Below, piece after piece: positions 1-11,289 of a stretch of DNA of 11,289 bases (the stretch's first letter is position 1; every line of letters starts with the position of its first letter). The notes below the pieces were generated by a model. The model was not told the DNA's origin, made no database searches, and worked only from the letters and a program-made list of their open reading frames with translations. This stretch comes from a virus (Duplodnaviria; Heunggongvirae; Uroviricota; Caudoviricetes): positions 1-11,289 of IMG/VR virus record IMGVR_UViG_2645728091_000014; one strand, given 5' to 3'. The translations under genes and the position numbers were made by a program.

Positions 1-249
1 ATGCGCACACAGGTTGTATTGCAAAAATGGGGTAATAGCATTGCCCTTCGACTAACGGGAAACCTTAAAACCGTTCCGGGTTTTTCAGTGGGTGATATCG
101 TCAACGTTGAAATTAGTGAAAAGGGGCTTTTTGTAGAAAAGCCTGCACGCCGTCGCCTGAGTGAAGCCGAATTACTCGCCGGGATAACGCCAGTTACAGC
201 GCACGCGGACGAAATTGCCCCCCCATTCAATGAGGAGGTTGATTACTGA
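1..249 (+). CDS. MazE/PemI-family antitoxin (SpoVT/AbrB-type)
   Basis: 82-aa ORF starting with ATG at base 1. N-terminal K-W-G-N-S-x-A-x-R motif is typical of MazE/PemI/ChpS antitoxins. Stop TGA (247-249) overlaps the ATG of the downstream toxin gene (TGATG). Confidence 0.8.
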   Translation: MRTQVVLQKWGNSIALRLTGNLKTVPGFSVGDIVNVEISEKGLFVEKPARRRLSEAELLAGITPVTAHADEIAPPFNEEVDY

Positions 250-593
250 TGTTTGTACCTAAGCGTGGTGATATTTGCTGGCTGGATTTTGAGCCGCAGA
301 AAGGAAAAGAGATCGGAAAGTATCGCCCGGCACTCATACTGTCCCATGAGCAATATAACCGACTCACCGGGCTTGTCATATGCTGCCCCATAAGTACGAG
401 CATACGAAATGCTCCCACAGAAGTTCCGGTAACAAATCTGGACGCCCCCAACGTTGTAGCAACCACACTCATTCAAACCCTTGACTGGCGTCAGCGGAAA
501 GCGCGCTTAATCACAGAGGCAGAAGATGGGGTATTTAATGATGTGCTTGAAAGAGTCATTACCCTGATTGGCGGAGAGCATCTGCTTAAGTAA
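249..593 (+). CDS. MazF/PemK-family mRNA interferase toxin
   Basis: 114-aa ORF with the family-typical N-terminus (P-x-R-G-D-I-x-W-L-D-F-E-P-x-x-G-x-E-x-G-x-x-R-P-A-L-I-L-S), comparable to MazF/ChpBK/PemK. Start overlaps the antitoxin stop. Confidence 0.85.
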   Translation: MFVPKRGDICWLDFEPQKGKEIGKYRPALILSHEQYNRLTGLVICCPISTSIRNAPTEVPVTNLDAPNVVATTLIQTLDWRQRKARLITEAEDGVFNDVLERVITLIGGEHLLK

Positions 594-597
594 AAGG

Positions 598-615
598 AGG
601 GCTGAGAAGCCCTCA
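598..615. terminator. GC hairpin between convergent genes (possible bidirectional terminator)
   Basis: GAGGGCT (598-604), loop GAGA, AGCCCTC (609-615), lying between the toxin stop and the stop of the minus-strand 423-aa ORF. The T-tract is weak on both strands. Confidence 0.35.
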
Positions 616-636
616 ACGTTACCGGAAATTTCCTTG

Positions 637-1908
637 CTATTCTTTCCAGTCAATCCCATCCAGTAAGCACCCTGCTTCATATTGCCCCACCACCCAGTCA
701 AGGTTACAGGACTCATAGAACGCGAGGCGATTATACTGAGGCTCGTTTTTTACCAGGCCACGAACGGAACCACGCTGCCAGTACAGACACAGATTGGCAA
801 GAGGTGTGATCAATACAGCATTGTCCGGGAAAAATGGAACGGTCACAGCCGGGAGATTCCCCAGAACAGGATTTTTAATGATTTCCTCGTTAAGCAAAAT
901 TTCCTGATTCATCTGCGATGGATCAAGACGGTTTATCAAAGGCCATTGCTTACGGACCAGCGTATTGTGACTGCATACGGCCACAATGCCTTCCTGCCAC
1001 TGTTCATCAATCATGGATTGCCAGGCATCCAGAACGAGCGCATCTATCGTATGGTGTGTACCGCGTGTATTACTTTTCGGTGATGAAACAGAAAGGCCGC
1101 TGATAACCCTTCCCGCCGCTTCATTTCGAAACTTCTGCAACCAGCCCACGCCGCAATCATCACGCCCCGGATATGTTCCGGGATCTGATGTATCGGCATA
1201 GTGCGTACCGTTAAAACCAATCTGAATCAAATCCAGCCATTTCCGGCGTTCAAAAGCAGCCCGTGCGCTTCCTTCAAGACCGTTTGCGGATGCGTGAGCA
1301 TCAACATTGTCGTAGTTCAGCGCAAAATCAAAATTAACCTGCTCGCAGCGGTAGCCCCTTGAAACCAGTGAATGCGCCTGTAGTGGCGAACGGCGCGCGT
1401 GAGACGGTGATGTGCGTGCCAGCGGCCCCGAAGCGTCTACCAGCACAACCCGACCTGATATATCCGTAACAGGCACGGGAGTTATTTCAGCAAGGAAATT
1501 TGCCTGCCATCCACTGGCAAGCGTTGCACTCTGGCGGGGAACAGGCTCAACTTCTGATGAATAGCGCGCAGTGTCATCGGAAAAGTGCAAGTCCTTCGGA
1601 TGCTTTCCGGTTATCGACTCGATAGCGAGATTGAAAGCTATCTGAGACTGTTGATTTCGTTGTGACACAACAGAACCAGCAGTGCGATTATAACGCTCAA
1701 TGCCGTTGTTATTGCCCTCACCGTTTGCAGAATGCAGGGTGTGAAGCTCGAGTTCGCGCTCCAGTTTTTGATATTCATTGTCCAGGGCGCGACGGGTTTC
1801 ATCGCTTATGCCTGCTGTATTTGCTTTCAGGCGATTCCGGGACATTGATCCCCTGAGTCGGCTCACTATATCAGCGACGTGCAAATGTGGAATGTTCAGA
1901 CCGCCCAT
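637..1908 (-). CDS. hypothetical protein ORF2 (423 aa), function unknown
   Basis: Long minus-strand ORF. Preferred start is the ATG at 1908-1906, which overlaps the TAA stop of ORF1 (minus-strand TAATG) and is preceded by GGGGGTGG. The track's 470-aa version starts at 2049 and would overlap ORF1 by 141 nt. No Walker A, CxxC or other motif recognised by eye. Confidence 0.7.
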   Translation of the reverse strand: MGGLNIPHLHVADIVSRLRGSMSRNRLKANTAGISDETRRALDNEYQKLERELELHTLHSANGEGNNNGIERYNRTAGSVVSQRNQQSQIAFNLAIESITGKHPKDLHFSDDTARYSSEVEPVPRQSATLASGWQANFLAEITPVPVTDISGRVVLVDASGPLARTSPSHARRSPLQAHSLVSRGYRCEQVNFDFALNYDNVDAHASANGLEGSARAAFERRKWLDLIQIGFNGTHYADTSDPGTYPGRDDCGVGWLQKFRNEAAGRVISGLSVSSPKSNTRGTHHTIDALVLDAWQSMIDEQWQEGIVAVCSHNTLVRKQWPLINRLDPSQMNQEILLNEEIIKNPVLGNLPAVTVPFFPDNAVLITPLANLCLYWQRGSVRGLVKNEPQYNRLAFYESCNLDWVVGQYEAGCLLDGIDWKE

Positions 1909-2618
1909 TACTGCCACCCCCGGCAGAGTTCTCTGCCCTCCGCAAGGTCGCGCATTTTTTCTGAATTCTGTCGCGCTGCGCTCCATTGTACAGGTGAAGG
2001 GGCGCTCCTGATTGCGCAGCTTACTGAATCCGGGAGTTTCTCCGGGCAATAACGCAGCGGGCTGGAGGTGTCGCTTTCGGTATCGTTAATCCGGCCGCGA
2101 ATCATCCCGACACTTTCAGCAGTATCTGCCGCTTTCAGTGTTTCGCATATTTTCTTTTCTGCGTTATACAGCGGCTGGCCAAGCAGCTCACATAAACCAC
2201 GAATCAATAACAGAACAGGGGTCAGCTCGTTAATCAGTTCGGGAAGTGCTTTTGCAAATATCTCTGCCCGCAACTTATTATCAATACTTTCGTAAGCACA
2301 ACCAGCCTCTGCCGCGTTATAACGACACTCCAGTAGCCTGATGCGCGCCTCATCATGCAGCACCCGCAGACGCTCAAGATTTTCTCGCGCCACACCCGCC
2401 TGAATGGATAATTTCGCGGAGGCTTCCGTTTTTACTCCCAGCGCAGACAGGATTGAGTTCTGCCAGTCACGATCGAGAGACTCCAGTTCCCCTTTCGTCT
2501 GTTCGATAGTCGCTTCCAGATTGGTGACTAATGATTCCTGTTCACTGAGTTTTGCCCTGGCAGTATCAAACCGTGCTTTACATACCTGATGTTCGGCGCT
2601 TGCCTGAGTTATATCCAT
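1908..2618 (-). CDS. hypothetical protein ORF1 (236 aa), predicted helical; possibly Psu-like
   Basis: ATG at 2618-2616 preceded by AGGAG with a 6-nt spacer. N-terminal half is rich in heptad-like charged/Leu segments. Weak resemblance to my recollection of P4 Psu (N-terminal FDT, central A-L-x-P-E-L...E-L-T), unverified. Confidence 0.7.
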   Translation of the reverse strand: MDITQASAEHQVCKARFDTARAKLSEQESLVTNLEATIEQTKGELESLDRDWQNSILSALGVKTEASAKLSIQAGVARENLERLRVLHDEARIRLLECRYNAAEAGCAYESIDNKLRAEIFAKALPELINELTPVLLLIRGLCELLGQPLYNAEKKICETLKAADTAESVGMIRGRINDTESDTSSPLRYCPEKLPDSVSCAIRSAPSPVQWSAARQNSEKMRDLAEGRELCRGWQ

Positions 2619-2627
2619 TATTTGCTC

Positions 2628-2728
2628 CTGTAATACATTTTTTACTTACGCCGATTTTTTCCATATTGCGTAATACATTCCAGCCGATTTTGTTCTCGTA
2701 ATACGCTCACAATACTGTTGTATTACGC
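2628..2728. promoter_or_regulatory. divergent control region with four GTAWTAC heptamers
   Basis: GTAATAC at 2630-2636, 2670-2676 and 2698-2704; inverted GTATTAC at 2720-2726. Lies between the starts of ORF1 (minus) and the RHH gene (plus). The ORF1 ribosome-binding site abuts the first copy. Confidence 0.45.
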
Positions 2729-2782
2729 TTTCTTATATCGCGGGTGTTAAATCCCGGCATAAACAATCAGGGAGGCAACACG

Positions 2783-3016
2783 ATGAAAAAACAAAAGAAA
2801 ATGCGATGCGTATTACGCTGTATTCGTATCCCGCACGAAATCGACCATAAAATAAATCAGATGTGTGAGGACAGAGAGATGAACTACTCCCAGTGCGTCA
2901 GAATGTTTATCAGTCAGGGAATTAAGGCCGGGGAAACGCAGGAAGAAGACCGTGACGGGCGCAATGTGGCGGGGGATGTGTGGGCCTGGGCAAATGACCA
3001 GAACCACACGACGTAA
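2783..3016 (+). CDS. putative ribbon-helix-helix (Arc/CopG-like) DNA-binding protein
   Basis: 77-aa ORF from ATG 2783 preceded by GGGAGG with a 7-nt spacer (the track's 2744 start is a GTG without an RBS). Residues VLRCIRIP then two helices (EIDHKINQMCEDREM, NYSQCVRMFISQG) fit the beta-strand/helix/helix pattern of Arc/MetJ/CopG repressors. Confidence 0.55.
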   Translation: MKKQKKMRCVLRCIRIPHEIDHKINQMCEDREMNYSQCVRMFISQGIKAGETQEEDRDGRNVAGDVWAWANDQNHTT

Positions 3017-3066
3017 TACAGCAATAACGCAGCCGGTCACACTCGCTGGCTGTGTTATACAAATCA

Positions 3067-3249
3067 CTATGAAGTTTTCGCCTTCCTGCGCTTAGTGATG
3101 CGTACAAACGACTCAAGCGTACAAAAACAAGCCCCACACTCAATATTATTGCACTGGTAATACGTTCTGTAGATGTTTTGTTCGTGTTCTTCCAACGAAC
3201 GACCACGGGTGCGGGCTGAAGCGCCACAGGCCGGGCAAGGGAAAGACAT
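3067..3249 (-). CDS. ogr: Ogr/Delta-family zinc-finger late-gene transcription activator
   Basis: 60-aa ORF with C-P-x-C...A-R-T-R...Y-x-C-x-N-x-x-C...F-x-T-x-E-S, matching the Cys4 pattern and spacing of P2 Ogr / P4 Delta. AGGAG 6 nt upstream of the ATG. Confidence 0.8.
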   Translation of the reverse strand: MSFPCPACGASARTRGRSLEEHEQNIYRTYYQCNNIECGACFCTLESFVRITKRRKAKTS

Positions 3250-3283
3250 ATCACGCTCCTCTTACTGGTGTGAAATTTAACCT

Positions 3284-3289
3284 ATTATA
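3284..3289 (-). promoter_or_regulatory. candidate -10 hexamer (TATAAT on minus strand) for ogr
   Basis: Perfect TATAAT on the minus strand about 35 nt upstream of the ogr ATG. No convincing -35 at 17 bp, so activator dependence is possible. Confidence 0.3.
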
Positions 3290-3610
3290 TCTTCCGCCGC
3301 CTCCTCTGGCTGTATCAAATAAACCCGCAGCAGTCGCCGCGTATTACGCACGGGCGCACCGTTCTCATGCTCACTCGTCACATTCCCCGTATCAGTTCTC
3401 TCTTGCCGTAAGAACGGCTCTGGCTGGCGATAAAACTAACCCGGTCGGGCATTCCCGCAGCCTTTAGCGAAAATGTCATTTACCCCCTGAAACGCGTGCT
3501 GTTCCCCCGTCACCTGCGCGCGAAAAACTCACCGTTTTTTGTGCACGCACGAAATCGCCCTCCGGGCGCGCCAGTACTGGGCCGGATGGGCAAAAAGTTA
3601 CTCTAAAAAA

Positions 3611-3637
3611 TTGTGCAAATTTGTGCACTTTTGTGCA
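3611..3637. repeat. three direct TTGTGCA repeats at exact 10-bp phasing
   Basis: TTGTGCA at 3611-3617, 3621-3627 and 3631-3637; a fourth copy at 3539-3545. Two copies extend to the palindrome GTGCAC. Confidence 0.6.
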
Positions 3638-3862
3638 GATGAACAATAGCGTCAAAAAGAGTGCTTTTGAGAGATTTTTTATGGCAACTGCGCCGCGTGT
3701 ATTACGTTTTTTACCATCCCCGCCGTGCATGTACATACTTCATTTTCTGCCAAACAACAGGGCAACTCCCCGTGACTGACAGCCCCAAAAAATCAATGAT
3801 TAATGTTGCATTTTTGTTAGAGATTAGACCAGTTGTTTTGGGGCTCTGCCTCATAATCCGGT

Positions 3863-4179
3863 GGGGGGTGCGCAAAGCGGTTACAACGGTTACAACAGTT
3901 AAAAACACAACTTAACAGTATGATTTTAATGGATATTGTTTGTAACCGCTTTGCGGTTACACTGCGGTTACAACGGTTACAGGTTTCAAAAAGCACTTTA
4001 TTATCAATCAATTAAAAACTTAACCTGTAACCGCCTGTAACCTAACAAAACGGTTACATGTAACCGCGTTGTAACCGCTTTTGTAACTCATCCGACCAGT
4101 TATAATATATTGATATATAATACAAAAATAAGTAATTCTAAATTTGTAACCGTTGTAACCGCTTTGCGCATCCCCCCCC
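3863..4179. repeat. iteron array bounded by a perfect 27-bp inverted repeat; putative ori/crr-like or att-arm region
   Basis: 3869-3895 (TGCGCAAAGCGGTTACAACGGTTACAA) is the exact reverse complement of 4144-4170, extended by G6 (3863-3868) / C8 (4172-4179). At least 13 GGTTAC/GTAACC hexamers lie between, as direct repeats (3878-3895, 3953-3981, 4024-4043) and palindromes (3941-3961, 4051-4066). An AT-rich stretch sits at 4100-4143 and an IHF-like WATCAANNNNTTR match at 4002-4014. Confidence 0.6.
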
Positions 4180-4366
4180 AAACTTTAGCGCGACCCTTTA
4201 AAATGTTAATTAAACTCACTTACTCTGTCTCATTCTCATTAACTCTCTGTGATTAAAATGTATCTCGTCATTATTTGACTCTTTCTGATAATCAGGGGGC
4301 AAAAAATTGATGGCGGCACCACTGCAATATGGCCACCATTGCATTGCCGTTACCGTTGGTTCTGGC

Positions 4367-4397
4367 CAACAAAAAAGGTCAGCGGGAAACTGACCTC
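4367..4397 (-). terminator. rho-independent terminator downstream of int
   Basis: Stem GGTCAG (4377-4382) / CTGACC (4390-4395) with 7-nt loop. On the minus strand it is followed by TTTTTGTT, 30-60 nt after the int stop. It is also T-rich on the plus side. Confidence 0.6.
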
Positions 4398-4425
4398 TTT
4401 TGCTGTGAATGTAGCGTTCTGCGGG

Positions 4426-5430
4426 TTACTCTGCTGGCTCTTTTTCTTCGATGATCACTATGTTGGCTACCGGGTTAAATCTCATGGCATCTGCCAGATA
4501 ATCCGGTGCAAAATGTGCGTATGCCATAGTCTGCTGAATTGTCGCATGCCCAAGGATTTTTTGTAGCGCAAGAATGTTGCCACCGTTCATCACAAAGTGA
4601 CTGGCGAATGTATGCCGCAATACATGCGCAGCCTGCCCCCTCGGTAAATCGGGTTTTATTTTTTTTAATGCCCGGCAAAACTCTCTATACTTCACATCAA
4701 ACAGTCGCCCGGTTTCTTTTGTTTTTACGGCATCGCATATTTCCTGCGACACAGGCACCGTTCTTTTTCTACCGTTTTTGGTTTCCAGAAACGTTATTCT
4801 ATTATGAACTATTTGCTCTCCATGCAATCTGCTGGCCTCACTCCAGCGGGCTCCGGTACATAGACACAAGAGCGCAACCCTTCGTTGATCTCCATTCAGC
4901 CCGTCAAGCAACAATGTGACCTCGTTTTTTGATAAAAAGGCCATTTCCCGCTGCTTTACATAAAGAACAGGAATACCACGAACCGGATGCTCTGCATCCC
5001 ACAAACCGATCTTTTTCAGGGCTGTAAACATCCCCGATAATCTGTTCATGTATCTGTTTGCTGAGGACGGCTTTAATCCTTCCGCAATTTTCTGCGATCG
5101 CCATGCAATGATTTTTAATTTGTCGAGTTCTACCGCAAACATGTCAGCTCCAAGCTCATTAATAATTTTGCCAAGCTGCTGTTTATCCGTGTTTGCCTTT
5201 CGCCTGTGCTGACCGTGATAAACCCACCACAATTCCAGTAAATCGCTAAGCGTTCTCCGGTCGCGATAGCCCTGTATAAACTCGCGCTTTTCGGCGTTCG
5301 CTATGATGTACCGTTCAGTTGCTGTAGCTATCGATTTTTTGTCAAATATTCTTCTGATGCGCTTCCCTTTACGTCCGCATGGCCTGATATCGAGCAGCCA
5401 CCGCCCATCATGCATCTTTCTGATCGGCAT
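4426..5430 (-). CDS. int: tyrosine recombinase / phage integrase (P2-type)
   Basis: C-terminal H-x-L-R-H-T...L-G-H...Y catalytic motifs. N-terminus (DGRWLLDIRPCGRKGKRIRRIFDKKS) resembles P2/186-type integrases. Preferred ATG at 5430 lies 2 nt after the primase stop with AAGGAGG upstream; the alternative ATG at 5466 adds 12 aa. Confidence 0.9.
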   Translation of the reverse strand: MPIRKMHDGRWLLDIRPCGRKGKRIRRIFDKKSIATATERYIIANAEKREFIQGYRDRRTLSDLLELWWVYHGQHRRKANTDKQQLGKIINELGADMFAVELDKLKIIAWRSQKIAEGLKPSSANRYMNRLSGMFTALKKIGLWDAEHPVRGIPVLYVKQREMAFLSKNEVTLLLDGLNGDQRRVALLCLCTGARWSEASRLHGEQIVHNRITFLETKNGRKRTVPVSQEICDAVKTKETGRLFDVKYREFCRALKKIKPDLPRGQAAHVLRHTFASHFVMNGGNILALQKILGHATIQQTMAYAHFAPDYLADAMRFNPVANIVIIEEKEPAE

Positions 5431-5432
5431 GT

Positions 5433-8102
5433 TTAACGCCCCTCCTTGTAACTGAATATCCGGCATTTCAGTACTTCCGGCTCTCTGGCCTCGGCGACCC
5501 CTCTTCCGGCGTTTGCCTGTCTGGAGACCTCACTACGAATGGTTTTGCGGCCTGTCAAAGGTCGGGAACGTCCTGCTCCGAGCAACTCAATCATTTCGCG
5601 GTCAGTGCGGATCTCCACGCGGTGAATAGCGGCAGCCTGTGCCAGTTGCGGAATACTGATAGCAATCCCCTCGCGGCATCCCTTGCCGTAGTGGTTTACA
5701 CCGTATTTTGTTATGCCGTCCAGGAAGTCGAACGCCTCCCAGAACTCCATCACTTCCGGTAAATCAGCCGCCGCCGCTTTAACCTGCGCTGTTGCCATTT
5801 GTTCCAGTTCCAGACATGTGGCATCAAGCCATTCATCTGGGATATCAATAACGCATTTCAGCGCCCTGACCAGCGCGATAAGTTGTGCGTGATTTTTGGC
5901 GATGCGGGGATGGCGAATATTTTCGCATCCGCAAAGGCGTTCCGTTTCAACTGGAGATACTTCCAGGAACGTTTGCATAATCGCCCGTTCCTGACTTGCC
6001 GCCCGGTGAATAAACCCAGATACCTTCTCGACGGGGTAAAGTTCCAGCCGTCTCGCCGCCAGGCGGGTATCAGGTGAATGGCGTTTTTTATCGGTGTATA
6101 TGCGTATCAGGCGCTCAATAATTGCCGGAGAGGCGTTTACCCGCGCATTCTGCGCAATCACGATAGCGCCCTTAAAATCCGGATCATAGGTGTTGTTATT
6201 GTTGGCCTTAACACCACGAACGCCGATACCACCGCCGTTATAGAGACTTTTCAGGTTATCGAAGTCAAACGCACCTCTTTTTTGCGCATTGTCTCCCCGG
6301 TCCGCTTCAATCAGAACAACAGGTAATCCGGCGACCTGTCCAAAGGTGCGCTTCCAGCCCGCCTCTGATCCTTTGGTTGGATCAACGCCTTCATAGTTGT
6401 CACGACCGCACAGCCGCCAGCAAAAATCAATCAGTGTTGATTTACCCGTTCCGGGCTCCCCGGTGACTTCAAGGAAGGGGAAGGATTCTTCTTTATCCCG
6501 GATTTGTTCGCTGAACAGGGAGCCCAACCAGAAAGCCAGGGTAATAATTCCCTTTTCACCAAAAGCCAGCCAGAGATCTTCCACCCAGGACGCTGTAAAT
6601 TCATCCGGTTTTTTGTAGTTAATCTGTAATGTGGGTTTTTCGCTTAATGGTTTTGCGTTTATGCCATCAATTTCAAAATAATCCTCATCATTGATTTCAT
6701 AAGTTTTACCCTTATAAACGGCAATATCATTAAACAGCCATGCCCCAATTCCCTTGTTGTATCCGATAAAATCCTGACCAATAACCTCTTTTATTGCGGG
6801 AAGGTCATTTTTTATTAATGCGTCAAGCTGCGTAGTCGTTCCGGTATAAATACCGCCTTTTGCCACGTGCAGCAGGCGTTTTTTAAATTCAGATGAGGAT
6901 GTTAATTGTCCTGATGTAAAGGTGTTTTTCACCGTAGCACCATCCGGGAATGTAACGCGGAAGTAATACCATGCTTCATCCGTGTCATTGTTTCGAATGT
7001 AATAAAGCGGCACTGGGTTACAGTTTGCGATTTCTTTTACAGCACCGGATTCCTTAAGTGCAATTTTGCGCGCTTCGTCTTCGTCAACATTTCGCTCATT
7101 AATGACACGCTCAACAGCCTTCATATGGCGCTCAATGTCCAGCTTGAACCAGAAAACACGGTTATCAAAAGTAAAATGAAATTCCTTCCGCTCACGAAAG
7201 GAAAACATTATTAGTGCCTTATCTCTTGGAGATTTCGCCAGCAATAAATCACCGTAATAACGGTATCTTTTCACATCATGGCCACGCAGCTTTCCGGCGA
7301 TGTGTAAATCATTCCAGTCGCGTTTATTGCTGTTTTTACCCGGTAACGCCGCCGCCGTTCTCCAGCCGTCTTCGGCGCTGCGTTCTGCATGTTTTTTCGC
7401 GTAACGTTCACCCGCACGCCCGTTATCCAGGGCCCACACAATAACCGGACGGGGATTATCTCCGCACAGCTTCGCCAGCTCTTCCAGCGCCTTATCAGGG
7501 TAGTTCACGGCAGACATGACAGAAACGGCCGCAATGCCATTCTGGTTAAGGCTGATGGCATCAAAGATGCCCTCACAAATCCAGATTTCTTTGGCCTTGC
7601 TTAAATCTGCTCCCGGATAAGCCCACCACAACCCCTTGTAGCTGCCGGAAAAATTCGCCTTGCGCGCGAAGCGTCCCGGTCGGTCTATGATGCGCTCCCA
7701 CCACACGCCGTCAGCCAGCGTAAAACGCACAGTAGCGGCCTGTTCGCCGTTTTCCTTGTCCTGGTATCGCTCCTGAGTAAATGCGCCCTTCAGTGGCCCC
7801 ACAGCAATATTGCGCGCTTCCTGAAGATAAGCTGCCGCCGCTGCATATGGCTCATCTTTCGTGCTGATATAACGATCTGACCATGATGAAAACACATCCG
7901 GGTAAAGTTCTTTGGTCAGCAGGTCTATACCGCATTTATTTTCGCGCCCACAGTGTACGATGTACGGCCTTTCAAGGCTGGTAAACAACTCTTTCTTTCC
8001 ACATTGCGGACAAACACCATACCGGAGGTAGTTATTTTCTTCTTTGAAGTTGTAATCACGGATAAGACGGTTAATAATCTCTTTTCTGATGTCAGATTTC
8101 AT
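5433..8102 (-). CDS. alpha-like DNA primase-helicase (zinc-binding N-terminus, TOPRIM primase, SF3/D5-type helicase)
   Basis: N-terminal C-P-x-C...H-C...C zinc motif, TOPRIM-like E-G-I-F-D-A and L-D-N-G-R-A-G, and Walker A G-E-P-G-T-G-K-S-T. Preferred ATG at 8102 with GGAG 8 nt upstream; the track start at 8126 is a GTG inside a hairpin. Confidence 0.9.
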   Translation of the reverse strand: MKSDIRKEIINRLIRDYNFKEENNYLRYGVCPQCGKKELFTSLERPYIVHCGRENKCGIDLLTKELYPDVFSSWSDRYISTKDEPYAAAAAYLQEARNIAVGPLKGAFTQERYQDKENGEQAATVRFTLADGVWWERIIDRPGRFARKANFSGSYKGLWWAYPGADLSKAKEIWICEGIFDAISLNQNGIAAVSVMSAVNYPDKALEELAKLCGDNPRPVIVWALDNGRAGERYAKKHAERSAEDGWRTAAALPGKNSNKRDWNDLHIAGKLRGHDVKRYRYYGDLLLAKSPRDKALIMFSFRERKEFHFTFDNRVFWFKLDIERHMKAVERVINERNVDEDEARKIALKESGAVKEIANCNPVPLYYIRNNDTDEAWYYFRVTFPDGATVKNTFTSGQLTSSSEFKKRLLHVAKGGIYTGTTTQLDALIKNDLPAIKEVIGQDFIGYNKGIGAWLFNDIAVYKGKTYEINDEDYFEIDGINAKPLSEKPTLQINYKKPDEFTASWVEDLWLAFGEKGIITLAFWLGSLFSEQIRDKEESFPFLEVTGEPGTGKSTLIDFCWRLCGRDNYEGVDPTKGSEAGWKRTFGQVAGLPVVLIEADRGDNAQKRGAFDFDNLKSLYNGGGIGVRGVKANNNNTYDPDFKGAIVIAQNARVNASPAIIERLIRIYTDKKRHSPDTRLAARRLELYPVEKVSGFIHRAASQERAIMQTFLEVSPVETERLCGCENIRHPRIAKNHAQLIALVRALKCVIDIPDEWLDATCLELEQMATAQVKAAAADLPEVMEFWEAFDFLDGITKYGVNHYGKGCREGIAISIPQLAQAAAIHRVEIRTDREMIELLGAGRSRPLTGRKTIRSEVSRQANAGRGVAEAREPEVLKCRIFSYKEGR

Positions 8103-8115
8103 ATATAAAACTCCA

Positions 8116-8145
8116 CCCCACTGCACCTTTTGCAGTGGGGTTTTT
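8116..8145 (+). terminator. perfect 10-bp GC hairpin plus T-run in the primase 5' leader
   Basis: CCCCACTGCA (8116-8125), loop CCTTT, TGCAGTGGGG (8131-8140), then TTTTT (8141-8145) on the plus strand. On the minus strand the stem is followed by UGGAGUUUUAUAUAUG, which contains the primase RBS and start. Confidence 0.45.
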
Positions 8146-8150
8146 ATTAA

Positions 8151-8450
8151 TTACTCGTTACTTATTGCTTTGGCAATCCCGGCGGTTTCGGCACTATGCC
8201 ATGAAAAAATTCCGCCAGAAGTATGCATTCCTGACTTAATCGCTCGTAATTCCCGATAAAGAATGTTAGTTAATGATTCCATTTCATTAATTTGCACTGG
8301 CATTCTCTCACTGGTATTAATTTCACCTGTCAATGCTGAAAGGAGCGCAATAACATTTATTACATCTTCAAGATTCTCAATGGAATCTTCCGTGAAAAAA
8401 CCAGCGTATTCTTTTTTGTATATATTGCGGATATTCTGATTTTCAGACAT
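8151..8450 (-). CDS. hypothetical protein (99 aa), AT-rich
   Basis: ATG at 8450 preceded by GGGGAG with a 5-nt spacer. Visibly more AT-rich than the flanking primase and small-ORF block. Confidence 0.5.
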   Translation of the reverse strand: MSENQNIRNIYKKEYAGFFTEDSIENLEDVINVIALLSALTGEINTSERMPVQINEMESLTNILYRELRAIKSGMHTSGGIFSWHSAETAGIAKAISNE

Positions 8451-8517
8451 AAAAACTCCCCGACCCGTTAAGATCGAAATATAAATTTAATTCAGTTATC
8501 AGTTGGTAATTCGGGAA

Positions 8518-8736
8518 TCAGGCGGAAAGCTGCGTCACCTTCAACGCTTTGAAATGTGTCATTCCCAGCTCTTCCAGCCCTTCGGCTGCGCGGCGTATGG
8601 CTTCGCCCGGTCCCGTTCCGTATACCGTTGCATGTGCATGTTTGGTTAACCCACGTTTATTAACGGCATAACCCAACACAAAGAAACGTTTTTCACCACT
8701 GCCATTATTTTTACGGGATATTGAACGGCTTTTCAT
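8518..8736 (-). CDS. hypothetical small protein (72 aa)
   Basis: ATG 8736-8734 overlaps the TGA stop of the upstream ORF (ATGA), indicating translational coupling. Confidence 0.5.
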   Translation of the reverse strand: MKSRSISRKNNGSGEKRFFVLGYAVNKRGLTKHAHATVYGTGPGEAIRRAAEGLEELGMTHFKALKVTQLSA

Positions 8737-8921
8737 TTCTTCACCTTTAGCACTGATGCTGTGAGTTCTTCTTCTGGCAATTGATATTTCGGCGCAATTT
8801 CTTCCGTATACCTGATAGCATCCCTTGCCGCTTTTCCTTTTGATTTATATTTACGTATCGTGTAGAAGTTTTCTTCCTCTCCTGTTACCACATTACGCAA
8901 TTTAATATGAATCTCGTACAT
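8733..8921 (-). CDS. hypothetical small protein (62 aa)
   Basis: Preferred ATG at 8921 is preceded by GGAGGGG and sits 2 nt after the TAA stop of the upstream ORF. The track version starts 10 codons earlier at 8951. Confidence 0.5.
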   Translation of the reverse strand: MYEIHIKLRNVVTGEEENFYTIRKYKSKGKAARDAIRYTEEIAPKYQLPEEELTASVLKVKK

Positions 8922-8923
8922 CG

Positions 8924-9106
8924 TTACCCCTCCATGATTTTTACTGCGCATTTGTGGGTTAATCGCCCCTGTTTGTCATTGCGGGAATATGCCATACGAC
9001 AGGCATCACGCCATGCATCGTCATAAGTCGGATATTCCCAGGAATGAATCATCTGGCGAACGTCGCCGTTCTGGTAGTTAATCAGGGTGATAAGGAGCTT
9101 AAACAT
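8924..9106 (-). CDS. hypothetical small protein (60 aa)
   Basis: Preferred ATG at 9106 is preceded by GGGAGG about 7 nt upstream. The track's 86-aa version (start 9184) has no RBS. Confidence 0.5.
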   Translation of the reverse strand: MFKLLITLINYQNGDVRQMIHSWEYPTYDDAWRDACRMAYSRNDKQGRLTHKCAVKIMEG

Positions 9107-9272
9107 GGCACGCCTCCCGGACACGGATACGGGCAACAAAGACCAGACGGGATGCCGGAAGCATGGCGCGCGCTTCGCGCTCACTGGCAGCGGTAACGGT
9201 ATGAAGGCGAATATTTTTACCGTGGCACTGCATAAAGCGCCAGATAAAATCAGGGCGTGTTGATATAGCCAT
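9099..9272 (-). CDS. hypothetical small protein (57 aa), possibly Icd-like
   Basis: ATG at 9272 preceded by AAGGAG. The track's 175-aa extension to 9626 is low-complexity and lacks an RBS. The E-R-E-A-R ... L-V-F-V-A-R-I motif pattern resembles my recollection of Icd-like proteins in P4-like prophages, unverified. Confidence 0.4.
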   Translation of the reverse strand: MAISTRPDFIWRFMQCHGKNIRLHTVTAASEREARAMLPASRLVFVARIRVREACHV

Positions 9273-9629
9273 TTTGGCGGCTCCTTGATTAAGTTTACGG
9301 AGTCTCGCCAGCACGCTGCTAAACATGGTGGCGGGACGTAACAGGGTTAGCAGACTGGCAATCAAGGAACCAGCGAGCGCAAAGGCTCCCCCATTACGCC
9401 CCGCCATAATACGGGGTAGGGTGGAATTACGGGCACAAAAAAACCGCATTACGGAAATATAGCGGCTACCCGCTTGATTGTTCAGGCTGCTAAACCCGGC
9501 ACCCGCTTTATGAGGTGCGGGCAAACGATACGCCATGACAAAAAAGCGAGTCAAGCAATATTGCAAATTATTTTTGCTCACTTGCGCTGAGTGATTGATT
9601 TTAAAGAGTAAAAAAGCCATAATCATTTC

Positions 9630-9720
9630 TGCCTATTACTTCTTATTGCTGACTTTAGGTGCATTAAATGCACATCCTTGACTGGTTGGCTCGCTAGCTT
9701 CAGCGAGCTTCTTTTTTTTT
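9630..9720 (+). ncRNA. candidate ~90-nt plus-strand small RNA, antisense to the minus-strand operon leader
   Basis: Plus-strand TTGATT (9595-9600), 17-bp spacer, CATAAT (9618-9623), then a GTGCATT/AATGCAC hairpin (9659-9673) and a terminator hairpin with T-run (9689-9720). No plus-strand ORF of note. Confidence 0.25.
9689..9720 (+). terminator. intrinsic terminator oriented on the plus strand
   Basis: GCTCGCT (9689-9695), loop AGCTTC, AGCGAGC (9702-9708), then TTCTTTTTTTTT (9709-9720). On the minus strand the A-run precedes the stem, so it is not a minus-strand terminator. Confidence 0.5.
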
Positions 9721-9820
9721 GCTCTGCTGCCAGTACTTGGCCTCCTTCCCCCACATGTAGCAATACGTTCAGATCAGTAAGTTTTGCCACCCAGTGATGG
9801 ACGCAATAAACCACCAACGC

Positions 9821-10141
9821 TTATTCAACTCTGGCGCTACCGGATTCTCTCTCCCTTTTCTTTTTGGCGTTTTCGTATGGGTTATTCACTTTGGCAATAA
9901 CTGGCGGATTACGTAGCCACCACAAAACATCACTTAACAGCCAGGTACATGAGCAACGCCCCAAAGAGTGACGAGGAGGAAAAGCACCGATCTTCTCCAG
10001 TTCCCAGCGGCGGGAGCGTGAAAGCGTGGTCATTTTTTTACACTTCTCTTCCCTGATGCGTTCTTCGCAGTCAAAGCCATACTCGGCGAGTATGGTGCGG
10101 CGCTGTTCTGGAGTTGGTGGAATGAATGCGGATTGAGTCAT
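9821..10141 (-). CDS. alpA: AlpA/Vis-family phage transcriptional regulator (excisionase-like HTH)
   Basis: 106-aa ORF. The segment L-S-R-S-R-R-W-E-L-E-K-I-G-A-F-P-P-R ... W-L-L-S-D-V-L-W-W-L matches the AlpA HTH pattern. Confidence 0.8.
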   Translation of the reverse strand: MTQSAFIPPTPEQRRTILAEYGFDCEERIREEKCKKMTTLSRSRRWELEKIGAFPPRHSLGRCSCTWLLSDVLWWLRNPPVIAKVNNPYENAKKKRERESGSARVE

Positions 10142-10202
10142 ATTTCCCCCTATGTTTCTGAACTTTCGGGGGAGATTTTTGTTTTACGGAGTTTTGAAAG
10201 CA

Positions 10203-10239
10203 AGTATTAAAGGTCTTATTAAGATGCTTGCTGGTCTTA
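10203..10239. repeat. two 15-bp direct repeats 21 bp apart in the alpA upstream region
   Basis: GGTCTTATTAAGATG (10203-10217) and GGTCTTACTGAGATG (10224-10238), 13/15 identical, overlapping the 3' end of the 350-aa ORF. Confidence 0.35.
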
Positions 10240-11289
10240 CTGAGATGATGCTTTAATCCATCTTGATATAGTACTTTTATCAAAGCGCATATTGAGTCCT
10301 GCCTCTCTTGCTTCCGCGGTCAATATATCAGCAAGTTTTACCGGATTGTTTTCGAGTTCTTTATAATGAATAACAAGCATCGCACGAAAAAAATCCTTCA
10401 TTGTTTTAGATAATCGTTCTATATTGTTTTTATTGGTGCATATGTCTTTCTCTCCATCCTCAGAACTTAATATATTGTTACCCGCACACAAATATAAAGT
10501 ATCTGCCAATGGATTAACATAATCTTTTCTTAACTCGCTATTGGAGTTTGTAGCATTTTGTATTTTTAAAAAATCATTCTTTAAGATATATAAATCACCA
10601 ATATCAAAAGAAACATCCTCAGTAACAATTAGTCCTATATGTATATCAACGTCAGAAGCAATTATAATATTGCTATTAATTATTCGGTTGGCTTTAAACT
10701 TCTTATTAAAATCATAGTTGGCAAAAAAACTTCCCCCCAAAGCGAAAATGCCGCCTATTTCAACAAAATACTTATGGTATTTTTCTTGAATACCTTTAAA
10801 TACTGGTGGCACAACTGCCACAGCTCTTTCATCCGTTGCTATTCGATATACACTATATATGTGATAATTTTCCCCATAATATACCCCCCTGTTATAATAA
10901 TTTAACAAAGCAAATGCAGTATCAATTGCTATGTCACCAAATTTGGGCGTTACATATGAATGACTTAGAGATTCGCACATTGAATCAAATATAATTCTCG
11001 ACTTGGTTTTTATATAATTAAAACCATGGTGTTCTGCCGCCCTTTCTGAAATGGCATCAAGATCAGATAACCGTGATTTACACGGTTCTGAATCCATAAA
11101 CTTACGCAGACAATCGAAATTAACCACATCTTTTTCATCTGGGATATTTAATACTCCATATGCAGATTCAATTTTTATACAAATACGAATGCAGCCTGTC
11201 ACAGCCCAATGAATAAGATCGTCAATATCGCAGTCTAATAACTTTGCCGCGCGCTCAATAGGATAGTAATCTCTTAGTGGTAACGTCAT
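10237..11289 (-). CDS. hypothetical protein (350 aa), AT-rich, HTH-like segments at both termini
   Basis: ATG is the last three bases of the window, so the true start may lie upstream. N-terminal Y-P-I-E-R-A-A-K-L-L-D-C-D-I-D-D-L-I-H-W and C-terminal A-D-I-L-T-A-E-A-R-E-A-G-L-N-M-R-F-D-K-S-T-I-S-R-W-I-K look like helix-turn-helix elements. A weak G-G-S ... S-D-V-D-I stretch was noted. Confidence 0.65.
   Translation of the reverse strand: MTLPLRDYYPIERAAKLLDCDIDDLIHWAVTGCIRICIKIESAYGVLNIPDEKDVVNFDCLRKFMDSEPCKSRLSDLDAISERAAEHHGFNYIKTKSRIIFDSMCESLSHSYVTPKFGDIAIDTAFALLNYYNRGVYYGENYHIYSVYRIATDERAVAVVPPVFKGIQEKYHKYFVEIGGIFALGGSFFANYDFNKKFKANRIINSNIIIASDVDIHIGLIVTEDVSFDIGDLYILKNDFLKIQNATNSNSELRKDYVNPLADTLYLCAGNNILSSEDGEKDICTNKNNIERLSKTMKDFFRAMLVIHYKELENNPVKLADILTAEAREAGLNMRFDKSTISRWIKASSQ

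Follow-up and report, generated by a model that had tools for sequence, protein, structure and literature searches.

The stretch analysed here, an 11,289-nucleotide window that makes up positions 1 to 11,289 of the virus record IMGVR_UViG_2645728091_000014 (Caudoviricetes), covers most of a ~13-kb island located between hpt and gcd in E. coli. Working across the island from left to right, we see a MazEF-type toxin-antitoxin pair, a gene for a P2-family capsid protein, a gene for a protein of 236 amino acids, a small plus-strand gene, a gene of the ogr/delta type (our main subject, here called ogr60) and a field of iterons. Beyond these come an Int_N-type tyrosine recombinase, an alpha-type primase with a Toprim domain, a group of small open reading frames (ORFs), an Icd-like ORF, an AlpA-family gene and a 350-amino-acid ORF; a terminal tyrosine integrase is found at the gcd end of the island, outside the window.

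The ogr60 gene (3249..3067, minus strand) starts with ATG and encodes a single-domain Cys4 zinc finger, Ogr60, of 60 amino acids (MSFPCPACGASARTRGRSLEEHEQNIYRTYYQCNNIECGACFCTLESFVRITKRRKAKTS). Its product matches the Pfam profile Ogr_Delta (PF04606) over positions 2–46 of 47 with 43.2 bits and E=3.7e-11, above the gathering cutoff of 26.3, and is also matched by PHROG 603 (‘transcriptional regulator’); the same protein is held in RefSeq as WP_001514397.1, where it already carries the label ‘ogr/Delta-like zinc finger family protein’. The four zinc ligands (C5, C8, C33 and C38) show the CxxC...CxxxxC spacing of the family, and these cysteines, together with R15 and F42, are unchanged throughout when the protein is aligned to P2 Ogr, to either half of P4 Delta, to the Ogr of phage 500465-2 and to five homologues from satellites. 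The profile alignment and the invariant cysteines thus bear out a first-pass annotation of the window, which had seen here a 60-residue Cys4 protein of the Ogr/Delta family. Members of this family activate sigma-70 late promoters by way of a TGT-N12-ACA dyad centred near -55, contacting the alpha subunit of RNA polymerase in a manner sensitive to rpoA109.

The short length of the protein is a stable character. The 90%-identity cluster of Ogr60 holds 76 distinct sequences, each listed member being 60 amino acids long, from E. coli, E. albertii and other Enterobacteriaceae, with one member found on at least 1000 contigs. Because the length is fixed across this cluster, the product is, on the sequences available, not a one-off truncation; four diverged E. 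coli copies (96–100% identity) also keep the start, the stop, the Cys codons, the ribosome-binding site and the TATAAT hexamer described below, so that the truncated pseudogene fragment which the first-pass annotation had set against its own proposal finds no counterpart in these data. As the ogr homologues of related elements measure 64–98 amino acids, we see Ogr60 as the short end of a natural length range. All residues conserved across the family fall inside a core formed by amino acids 1–51, after which a tail of 9 residues remains. Synonymous and nonsynonymous changes among the four variants of ogr number about five each, too few to speak on selection.

A shortened activator of this kind might act as an interference factor, occupying the late boxes of a helper phage unproductively and so skewing expression toward the satellite. 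It is the C-terminus, the shortest among the homologues compared (the whole protein having 60 residues against their 64–98), that would favour this explanation, along with the general tendency of satellites to interfere with their helpers. The residues conserved in active members of the family are, however, all within the retained 1–51 core; the C-terminus of Ogr is said to be dispensable for activation, a C-terminally truncated P2 Ogr having reportedly kept its activity; and the satellite needs the portal, terminase, tail and lysis products of its helper, encoding none of these itself. Of the explanations weighed here we consider this the least probable, and we continue to treat Ogr60 as a putative activator.

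A strong Shine-Dalgarno sequence, AGGAG (3256..3260, minus strand), can be read 6 nucleotides (nt) before the ogr60 ATG, and a candidate -10 element, a perfect TATAAT (3289..3284, minus strand), lies 34 nt upstream of the gene and is the same in the four E. coli variants. This hexamer predicts a transcription start near 3277, and a GTAATAC heptamer, one of a cluster discussed below, has its centre ~67 nt upstream of that start. No Ogr-type box comparable to the one at the late promoter was found before ogr60 itself, nor any convincing intrinsic terminator after it. The gene is monocistronic, a convergent small gene standing between it and the Sid-like/capsid operon, in line with its earlier description as a stand-alone gene.

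A Sid-like and capsid operon downstream of ogr60

Past the convergent small gene, the next gene in the direction of transcription (2618..1908, minus strand) encodes the all-helical protein of 236 amino acids, for which profile-profile and fold comparisons point to remote homology with the Sid/Psu superfamily. Sid has been regarded as an invention specific to P4, with no obvious relatives. No significant match to P4 Sid, P4 Psu or any phage record came from BLASTP or tblastn (P4 Sid at E=0.99 by BLASTP), the Pfam, PHROGs, NCBIfam and PADLOC collections gave spurious coiled-coil matches only, and a word-indexed profile search with the Sid-like family found close relatives only. An exhaustive HMMER search recovered 17 Sid-like representatives (E <= 0.001), of which the full-length ones are mostly 239–253 amino acids long, compared with 244 for Sid. 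When a profile of 12 Sid-like proteins was aligned by hhalign to a profile of 21 Sid-family proteins, the two ran collinearly (columns 36–140 against 40–144) with a probability of 77.7%, E=1.9e-5 and a score of 41.6; as controls, 60 block-shuffled Sid alignments scored 15.6 +/- 2.2 (maximum 20.9) and a reversed alignment 11.5. Aligned in the same manner with P4 Psu, the family gave a probability of 0.2%.

The structural comparison points the same way. AlphaFold2, supplied with the 12-sequence alignment, produced a model of the Sid-like protein with a predicted local distance difference test score (pLDDT) of 93.3 (a single-sequence model, at pLDDT 50, was too poor and was not used), and Foldseek searches of the PDB ranked P4 Sid first (7jw1_E; probability 0.98, template modelling score 0.47, E=0.058) and Psu third. 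Searching the PDB sequences with the family profile reached Sid at E=7.2 only, and sequence identity to Sid and Psu in these comparisons is no higher than ~12–19%. No one of these lines is decisive singly, because helical bundles draw many matches; combined, they support the 236-amino-acid protein as a remote member of the Sid/Psu superfamily.

The Sid-like stop codon and the start codon of the following gene overlap by 1 nt, giving a two-gene operon. This second gene (637..1908, minus strand) encodes a satellite version of the P2-family major capsid protein, 423 amino acids in length (PF05125, E=4e-73), which is 35–40% identical to the capsid proteins of 186, PSP3, P2 and P88 and 40–51% identical to those of other satellites. 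Since it is closer to other satellites’ capsids than to phage capsids, it appears to be a long-standing satellite gene and not a recent capture. The protein from the window has an N-terminal extension of ~65–110 residues. Across the satellites (the window and the related loci L005, L008 and L013) such N-terminal insertions differ widely in length, total protein lengths being 345–497 amino acids, and they are missing from phage gpN; they may be scaffold-like, delta-domain-like or targets of a protease.

The same set of genes is found well beyond this island. A Phage_cap_P2 gene immediately follows the Sid-like gene in eight of nine loci (the window, L005, L008, L013, L019, L020, L021 and L022), the sole exception being L010, a short metagenomic contig, and an Ogr_Delta gene is located within ~1 kb in seven: the window (60 amino acids), L008 (84), L013 (75), L019 (64), L020 (98), L021 (77) and L010 (72 and 64). 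Most of these loci also share a P4-type backbone of primase, Int_N recombinase and AlpA/HTH_17 genes. The first-pass annotation had reported no recognisable sid-like gene and had envisaged an element that activates the late operons of its helper without redirecting capsid size; neither statement is supported, in view of the probable remote Sid/Psu relationship of the next gene downstream and the satellite-specific capsid gene adjoining it. On these sequence comparisons, genes for capsid hijacking appear to be present in unusual form rather than absent.

Two of the related loci carry ogr in other forms. In L010 (1291–2555) two separate Ogr_Delta genes, of 72 and 64 amino acids, stand in tandem directly upstream of the Sid-like gene, an arrangement that looks like P4 Delta with its two domains unfused. 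In Salmonella (L005 8373–8582; L006 4629–4838) the homologue is a pseudogene, reading VFPCP*CGSSART..., in which a TAA at codon 6 falls after the first Cys codon and before the second; despite this, L005 keeps its Sid-like and capsid genes intact and retains an exact box of the form TGT-N12-ACA. Because its own ogr is a pseudogene, the Sid-like/capsid operon of the Salmonella element must rely on another activator, most simply that of the helper.

Late promoter boxes and the GTAWTAC heptamers

Three relatives (L008, L005 and L013) have exact TGT-N12-ACA boxes, with the extension ...ACAAC(AAAA), whose centres lie 82–92 nt upstream of the Sid-like start, and in P4 the Psid promoter has its TGT-N12-ACA box 81 nt upstream of the start codon. 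At the corresponding place in the window we find a candidate Ogr/Delta box, TGTGAGCGTATTACGAGA (followed by ACAAAA; 2711..2694, minus strand), of the form TGT-N12-AGA with one mismatch; its centre is 84.5 nt before the ATG of the Sid-like gene. The box, TGT-N12-AGAACAAAA, is the same in all four variants, and its reverse complement has the form TCT-N12-ACA seen in P88 late promoters, the two divergent late control regions of that phage reading TCT-N12-ACAACAAAA. The P2 record places activator sites ~55–58 nt upstream of late transcription starts; a weak -10, AAAAAT (2659..2654), with a late start predicted near 2647, would put the candidate box of the window at -55.5. The argument for this box is one of positional homology alone.

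A second motif occupies the same region. Nine copies of a GTAWTAC heptamer, as GTAATAC or GTATTAC, are clustered at 2630..3705 (sites at 2630, 2670, 2698, 2720, 2810, 3013, 3157, 3341 and 3699), around ogr60, the small convergent gene and the Sid-like promoter, and form a candidate operator for an element-encoded regulator. The window as a whole contains 11 copies against 0.94 expected, a number reached by none of 200 shuffles. Heptamer positions recur in L005, L012 and L013, and do not in L008, L010, P2 or P88-like genomes. As a possible motif of helper late promoters GTAWTAC was rejected, being unenriched in P2 and in a Gemsvirus genome.

This clustering, with one copy ~67 nt upstream of the predicted ogr60 start and two flanking the candidate box, raises the question of whether the specificity of Ogr60 has diverged, such that it binds GTAWTAC rather than TGT-N12-ACA and regulates only the satellite’s own ogr/CopG-like/Sid-like control region; the recurrence of motif positions in L005, L012 and L013 would also fit. 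L005, however, keeps its heptamers despite the pseudogene in place of ogr, which argues that Ogr is not the heptamer binder and points to another protein, such as the CopG-like one; L008 and L010, both of which have an intact ogr, lack the motif, and it is unenriched in helper genomes. We judge such a change of specificity to be distinctly improbable, and retain TGT-N12-ACA-type dyads as the predicted targets of Ogr60 as a late-gene activator.

The small gene itself (2783..3016, plus strand), convergent with ogr60 and divergent from the Sid-like/capsid operon, encodes 77 amino acids and has homologues at the same position in L005, L013 and L008. Its matches to CopG and VapB are weak (E=0.04 and 0.005) and one source calls a member of its cluster ‘CopG family’; we consider the protein probably to be a ribbon-helix-helix/CopG-like regulator. 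It is the leading candidate for the GTAWTAC binder, gene and heptamers together being candidates for a circuit that keeps the module silent.

Putative packaging region, probable helper and proposed mode of action

Some 230 nt upstream of ogr60 lies a putative cos-type packaging region (3472..3638, minus strand), detected by blastn similarity to P88-like phages: over ~167 nt it is 77–81% identical to non-coding DNA of P88, vB_EcoM-569R5, 500465-2, 520873, the SE11 prophage and relatives. In P88 and the E. coli SE11 prophage the matching DNA is positioned just beyond the portal gene, the place of cos in P2-like phages (P2 map compared). The region contains three TGCACAA repeats and a 19-mer, GGTGACGGGGGAACAGCAC (3514..3496), 14 positions of which agree with the P2 cohesive end, and it is kept in the related satellites L005 and L013. 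The cos junctions of P2 and P4, searched for in the window, L001, L005, L008 and L013, yielded only chance-level 10–14-mers; what the island carries is a cos of the P88 type, not of the P2/P4 type. RefSeq lays an 86-amino-acid ‘hypothetical protein’ over this region (3476–3736, minus strand), for which no homologues were found in PHROGs or NCBIfam and which is probably spurious.

The phages that share the cos region also provide the closest phage homologues of Ogr60 (P88, 500465-2 and 520873; 49–51% identity). With a cos that matches P88-like phages and no match to those of P2 or P4, the helper is more likely to be a P88-like peduovirus than P2 itself. Among 5426 complete E. coli genomes, 1173 contain the P88-type cos sequence (query window 3460–3650); potential helpers, or further satellites using this type of cos, are therefore common in E. 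coli. A satellite-type copy (>=90% identity) is present in 56 genomes, 39 of which hold at least one further copy, compared with 20.8% of the remaining genomes (odds ratio 8.7, p ~8e-15, for genomes that are phylogenetically non-independent and second copies that were not individually inspected).

Taken together, we put at roughly 0.6 the probability that ogr60 encodes a functional, minimal Ogr/Delta-type late-gene activator of a P4-like satellite prophage that relies on P88-like peduoviruses as helpers. We infer activation by Ogr60 from its family, its integrity, the synteny of the locus and the boxes found in relatives; likewise, we infer DNA binding, the responding promoters and the use of the satellite capsid in particles. 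In the scheme we propose, modelled on the action of Ogr and Delta in P2 and P4, derepression or the presence of a helper would lead Ogr60 to bind TGT-N12-ACA-type dyads near -55 of late operons with weak promoters, the helper’s own Ogr homologue binding the same dyads. The morphogenetic and lysis operons of the helper would be switched on in this way, as would the satellite’s own late operon just downstream of ogr60, supplying the Sid-like helical protein and the satellite-specific P2-family capsid protein. The alpha-type primase would meanwhile replicate the satellite genome from the iteron origin, and the helper terminase, acting on a cos that mimics its own, would package that genome into heads containing, or shaped by, the satellite capsid and Sid-like proteins.

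More tentatively, and with a probability that we set somewhat below even, the island may represent a P4-like lineage that parasitises P88-like peduoviruses of E. coli, Salmonella and related enterobacteria. Here ogr, a Sid-like scaffold and a diverged gpN-type capsid protein of the satellite’s own would replace the sid-delta-psu set and build or seed small capsids specific to the satellite, either Ogr60 or the helper Ogr could serve as the switch, and the GTAWTAC/CopG-like circuit would hold the module off.

Several observations weigh against Ogr60 being a working activator. The protein scores 29.7 bits, below the cutoff of 116, with the NCBIfam equivalog model for Ogr (NF007241/PRK09678), and is by sequence a member of the Ogr/Delta family but no strict P2 Ogr orthologue; its C-terminus is the shortest among all the homologues compared. 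The near-consensus -10 noted in the first-pass annotation is a perfect hexamer, and to that extent stands, but TATAAT is common in the window (11 copies against 7.6 expected, with 22 of 200 shuffles reaching 11), no acceptable -35 lies at 16–18 nt (TTGATA is 23 nt off) and a sigma-70 promoter scan did not call the site, leaving ogr60 with a -10-only candidate promoter at best. The ACA half-site of the window box is mismatched, and boxes with one mismatch occur at chance level (8 in 1.4 kb, with 6.8 expected), while a scan of the window for exact TGT-N12-ACA gave a single, unrelated match at 10890 and none near the ogr or Sid-like genes. The host genome of the window’s copy lacks a second P88-type cos, so no resident helper is evident; ogr is dispensable in at least one lineage, as its Salmonella relative has an in-frame stop; and the island is rare, found in 57 of 5426 complete E. 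coli genomes, chromosomal every time and with copies 96–100% identical.

Much of this would also be expected if Ogr60 were an inert leftover in a cryptic, decaying island, its ORF surviving since the element is young: the element is rare and its copies nearly identical, ogr is a pseudogene in Salmonella, the box at the late promoter is imperfect, no helper cos copy is co-resident in this host and one source tags a member of the Ogr60 cluster as a ‘prophage remnant’. Set against decay are the length of the ORF, its Cys codons, ribosome-binding site and TATAAT, intact in all copies examined, and the full-length state of the neighbouring primase, integrase, Sid-like and capsid genes. The order ogr/Sid-like/capsid furthermore persists across lineages whose Sid-like proteins are only 24–40% identical, and would therefore reflect long-term selection, and a second cos copy of the P88 type is over-represented in genomes that carry the satellite. 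We thus think an inert leftover unlikely, if less so than either of the alternatives considered above, and favour a functional activator within a maintained module.

The P4-type backbone and its place among known systems

The remainder of the island conforms to the P4 plan, and the first-pass view of a satellite-type element is upheld by an alpha-like primase, AlpA, an Icd-like ORF, the C4 and isrK RNAs and a terminal integrase. The alpha-type primase/helicase (5433..8126, minus strand) has a Toprim domain and a weak match to DUF5906, its homologues in related loci showing Zn_Ribbon_Prim, Toprim and DUF927 domains. P4-type immunity RNAs, the C4 antisense RNA and isrK, are located at 9324..9518 (minus strand; Rfam RF01695 at 74.7 bits and RF01394 at 52.1 bits, both exceeding gathering) inside an ORF in which NCBIfam finds an Icd-like domain, and an AlpA-family regulator is encoded at 9821..10141 (minus strand; PF05930, E=3.3e-7).

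Between ogr/cos on one side and the Int_N recombinase gene on the other, in AT-rich DNA, lies the iteron field (3860..4180), which has 12 of the window’s 15 GGTTACA/TGTAACC copies in direct and inverted arrays, with units GCGGTTACA(A)/TTGTAACCGC and an inverted pair of 36 nt showing 94% complementarity. The field is probably a replication origin or a crr-like target of the alpha-type primase.

The Int_N recombinase (Int_N and Phage_integrase domains, ~330 amino acids; 4426–5466, minus strand) adjoins the primase gene and is additional to the terminal integrase, and its position is kept in most related loci, including L005, L008, L019 and L020. At the hpt end stands a MazE/PemK-type toxin-antitoxin pair (1–593, plus strand), related islands having other toxin-antitoxin pairs in equivalent slots. 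The 350-amino-acid ORF (10237–11289, minus strand), which adjoins AlpA and has a GC content of 31%, gave no match in Pfam, PHROGs, NCBIfam or PADLOC; it and the toxin-antitoxin pair are likely accessory cargo.

Published schemes recognise P4-like satellites by seven core components, including integrase, Delta, AlpA, Alpha primase, Sid, Psu and Epsilon (Ash) (PMC8628076, PMC10085698). The island has the integrase, Delta/Ogr, AlpA and Alpha primase, with the C4/isrK RNAs and the Icd-like domain in addition. Among the homologues that the first-pass annotation proposed to look for, sid is probably represented in remote form and cos by the P88 type, whereas neither Psu nor a P2/P4 cos was found: the main ORFs scanned had no Pfam or PHROG match to Psu, and the capsid gene fills the neighbouring slot. 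For Epsilon, the small ORFs at 8151–8951 had no matches in general scans, no comparison aimed at Epsilon having been made for the window; the relatives L008 and L013 have Phage_ASH or Derepression matches. Under the seven-component scheme the island would count as an incomplete variant, although its backbone is of the P4 type.

Whilst ogr60 is itself an ordinary, already annotated gene, its interest lies in the setting, and the surrounding module is a plausible new form of P4-type piracy. What defines P4-like satellites is the sid-delta-psu set together with their dependence on the capsid protein of the helper. We found no paper on P4-like satellites with a P2-family capsid gene, in literature whose coverage was incomplete, so that this is absence of evidence only. 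If the module is functional, the ‘satellite brings own capsid’ strategy would extend to the world of P4, and the module would stand as an intermediate in the evolution that gave rise to Sid and Psu; its helper range would be the P88-like phages, whose cos type is present in ~21% of complete E. coli genomes, and detection models centred on P4 may miss such satellites or class them as incomplete.

Compared with the Ogr of P2 (72 amino acids) and of P88-like phages (Xuanwuvirus/Gemsvirus), Ogr60 has the same single Cys4 domain, belongs to the same Pfam family and likewise has its own transcription unit. Identity to P2 Ogr is 30–32%, depending on the alignment, and to the P88-like homologues 46–51%; Ogr60 differs in being satellite-encoded, in its length of 60 residues with a tail of 9, and in adjoining cos rather than ending the tail operon. 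With P4 Delta (166 amino acids, in the sid-delta-psu operon) it shares the character of a satellite-encoded Ogr-family protein beside a Sid-type gene, and the TGT-N12-ACA boxes of P4 Psid and of the window’s relatives are equally far from the start codon of the Sid-type gene. Delta is, however, a tandem fusion of two Ogr-like domains situated inside the operon that it activates, whereas Ogr60 has one domain and is monocistronic, a CopG-like gene intervening; and where P4 has Psu and a P2/P4-type cos, the window has a capsid gene following the Sid-like gene and a P88-type cos. Unlike P4 Sid, an external size-determining scaffold (PDB: 7JW1), and Psu (PDB: 3RX6), the Sid-like gene of the window has its translation coupled to that of a satellite capsid gene.

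Capsid homologues encoded by satellites are known from phage-inducible chromosomal islands (PICIs), namely Ccm of SaPIbov5 and the capsid-like protein of PmCI172 (PMC6893505), and from the capsid-forming PICIs (cfPICIs; PMC10085698), each carrying, as the window does, its own homologue of the helper’s major capsid protein. These elements use lambdoid, siphovirus or Mu-like helpers, whereas in the window a P4-type backbone bears a P2-family capsid protein paired with a Sid-like protein. The cfPICIs carry a fuller set of head and packaging genes on a PICI backbone; the island described here has, of such a set, the capsid and Sid-like genes only, and holds them on a backbone of the P4 type.

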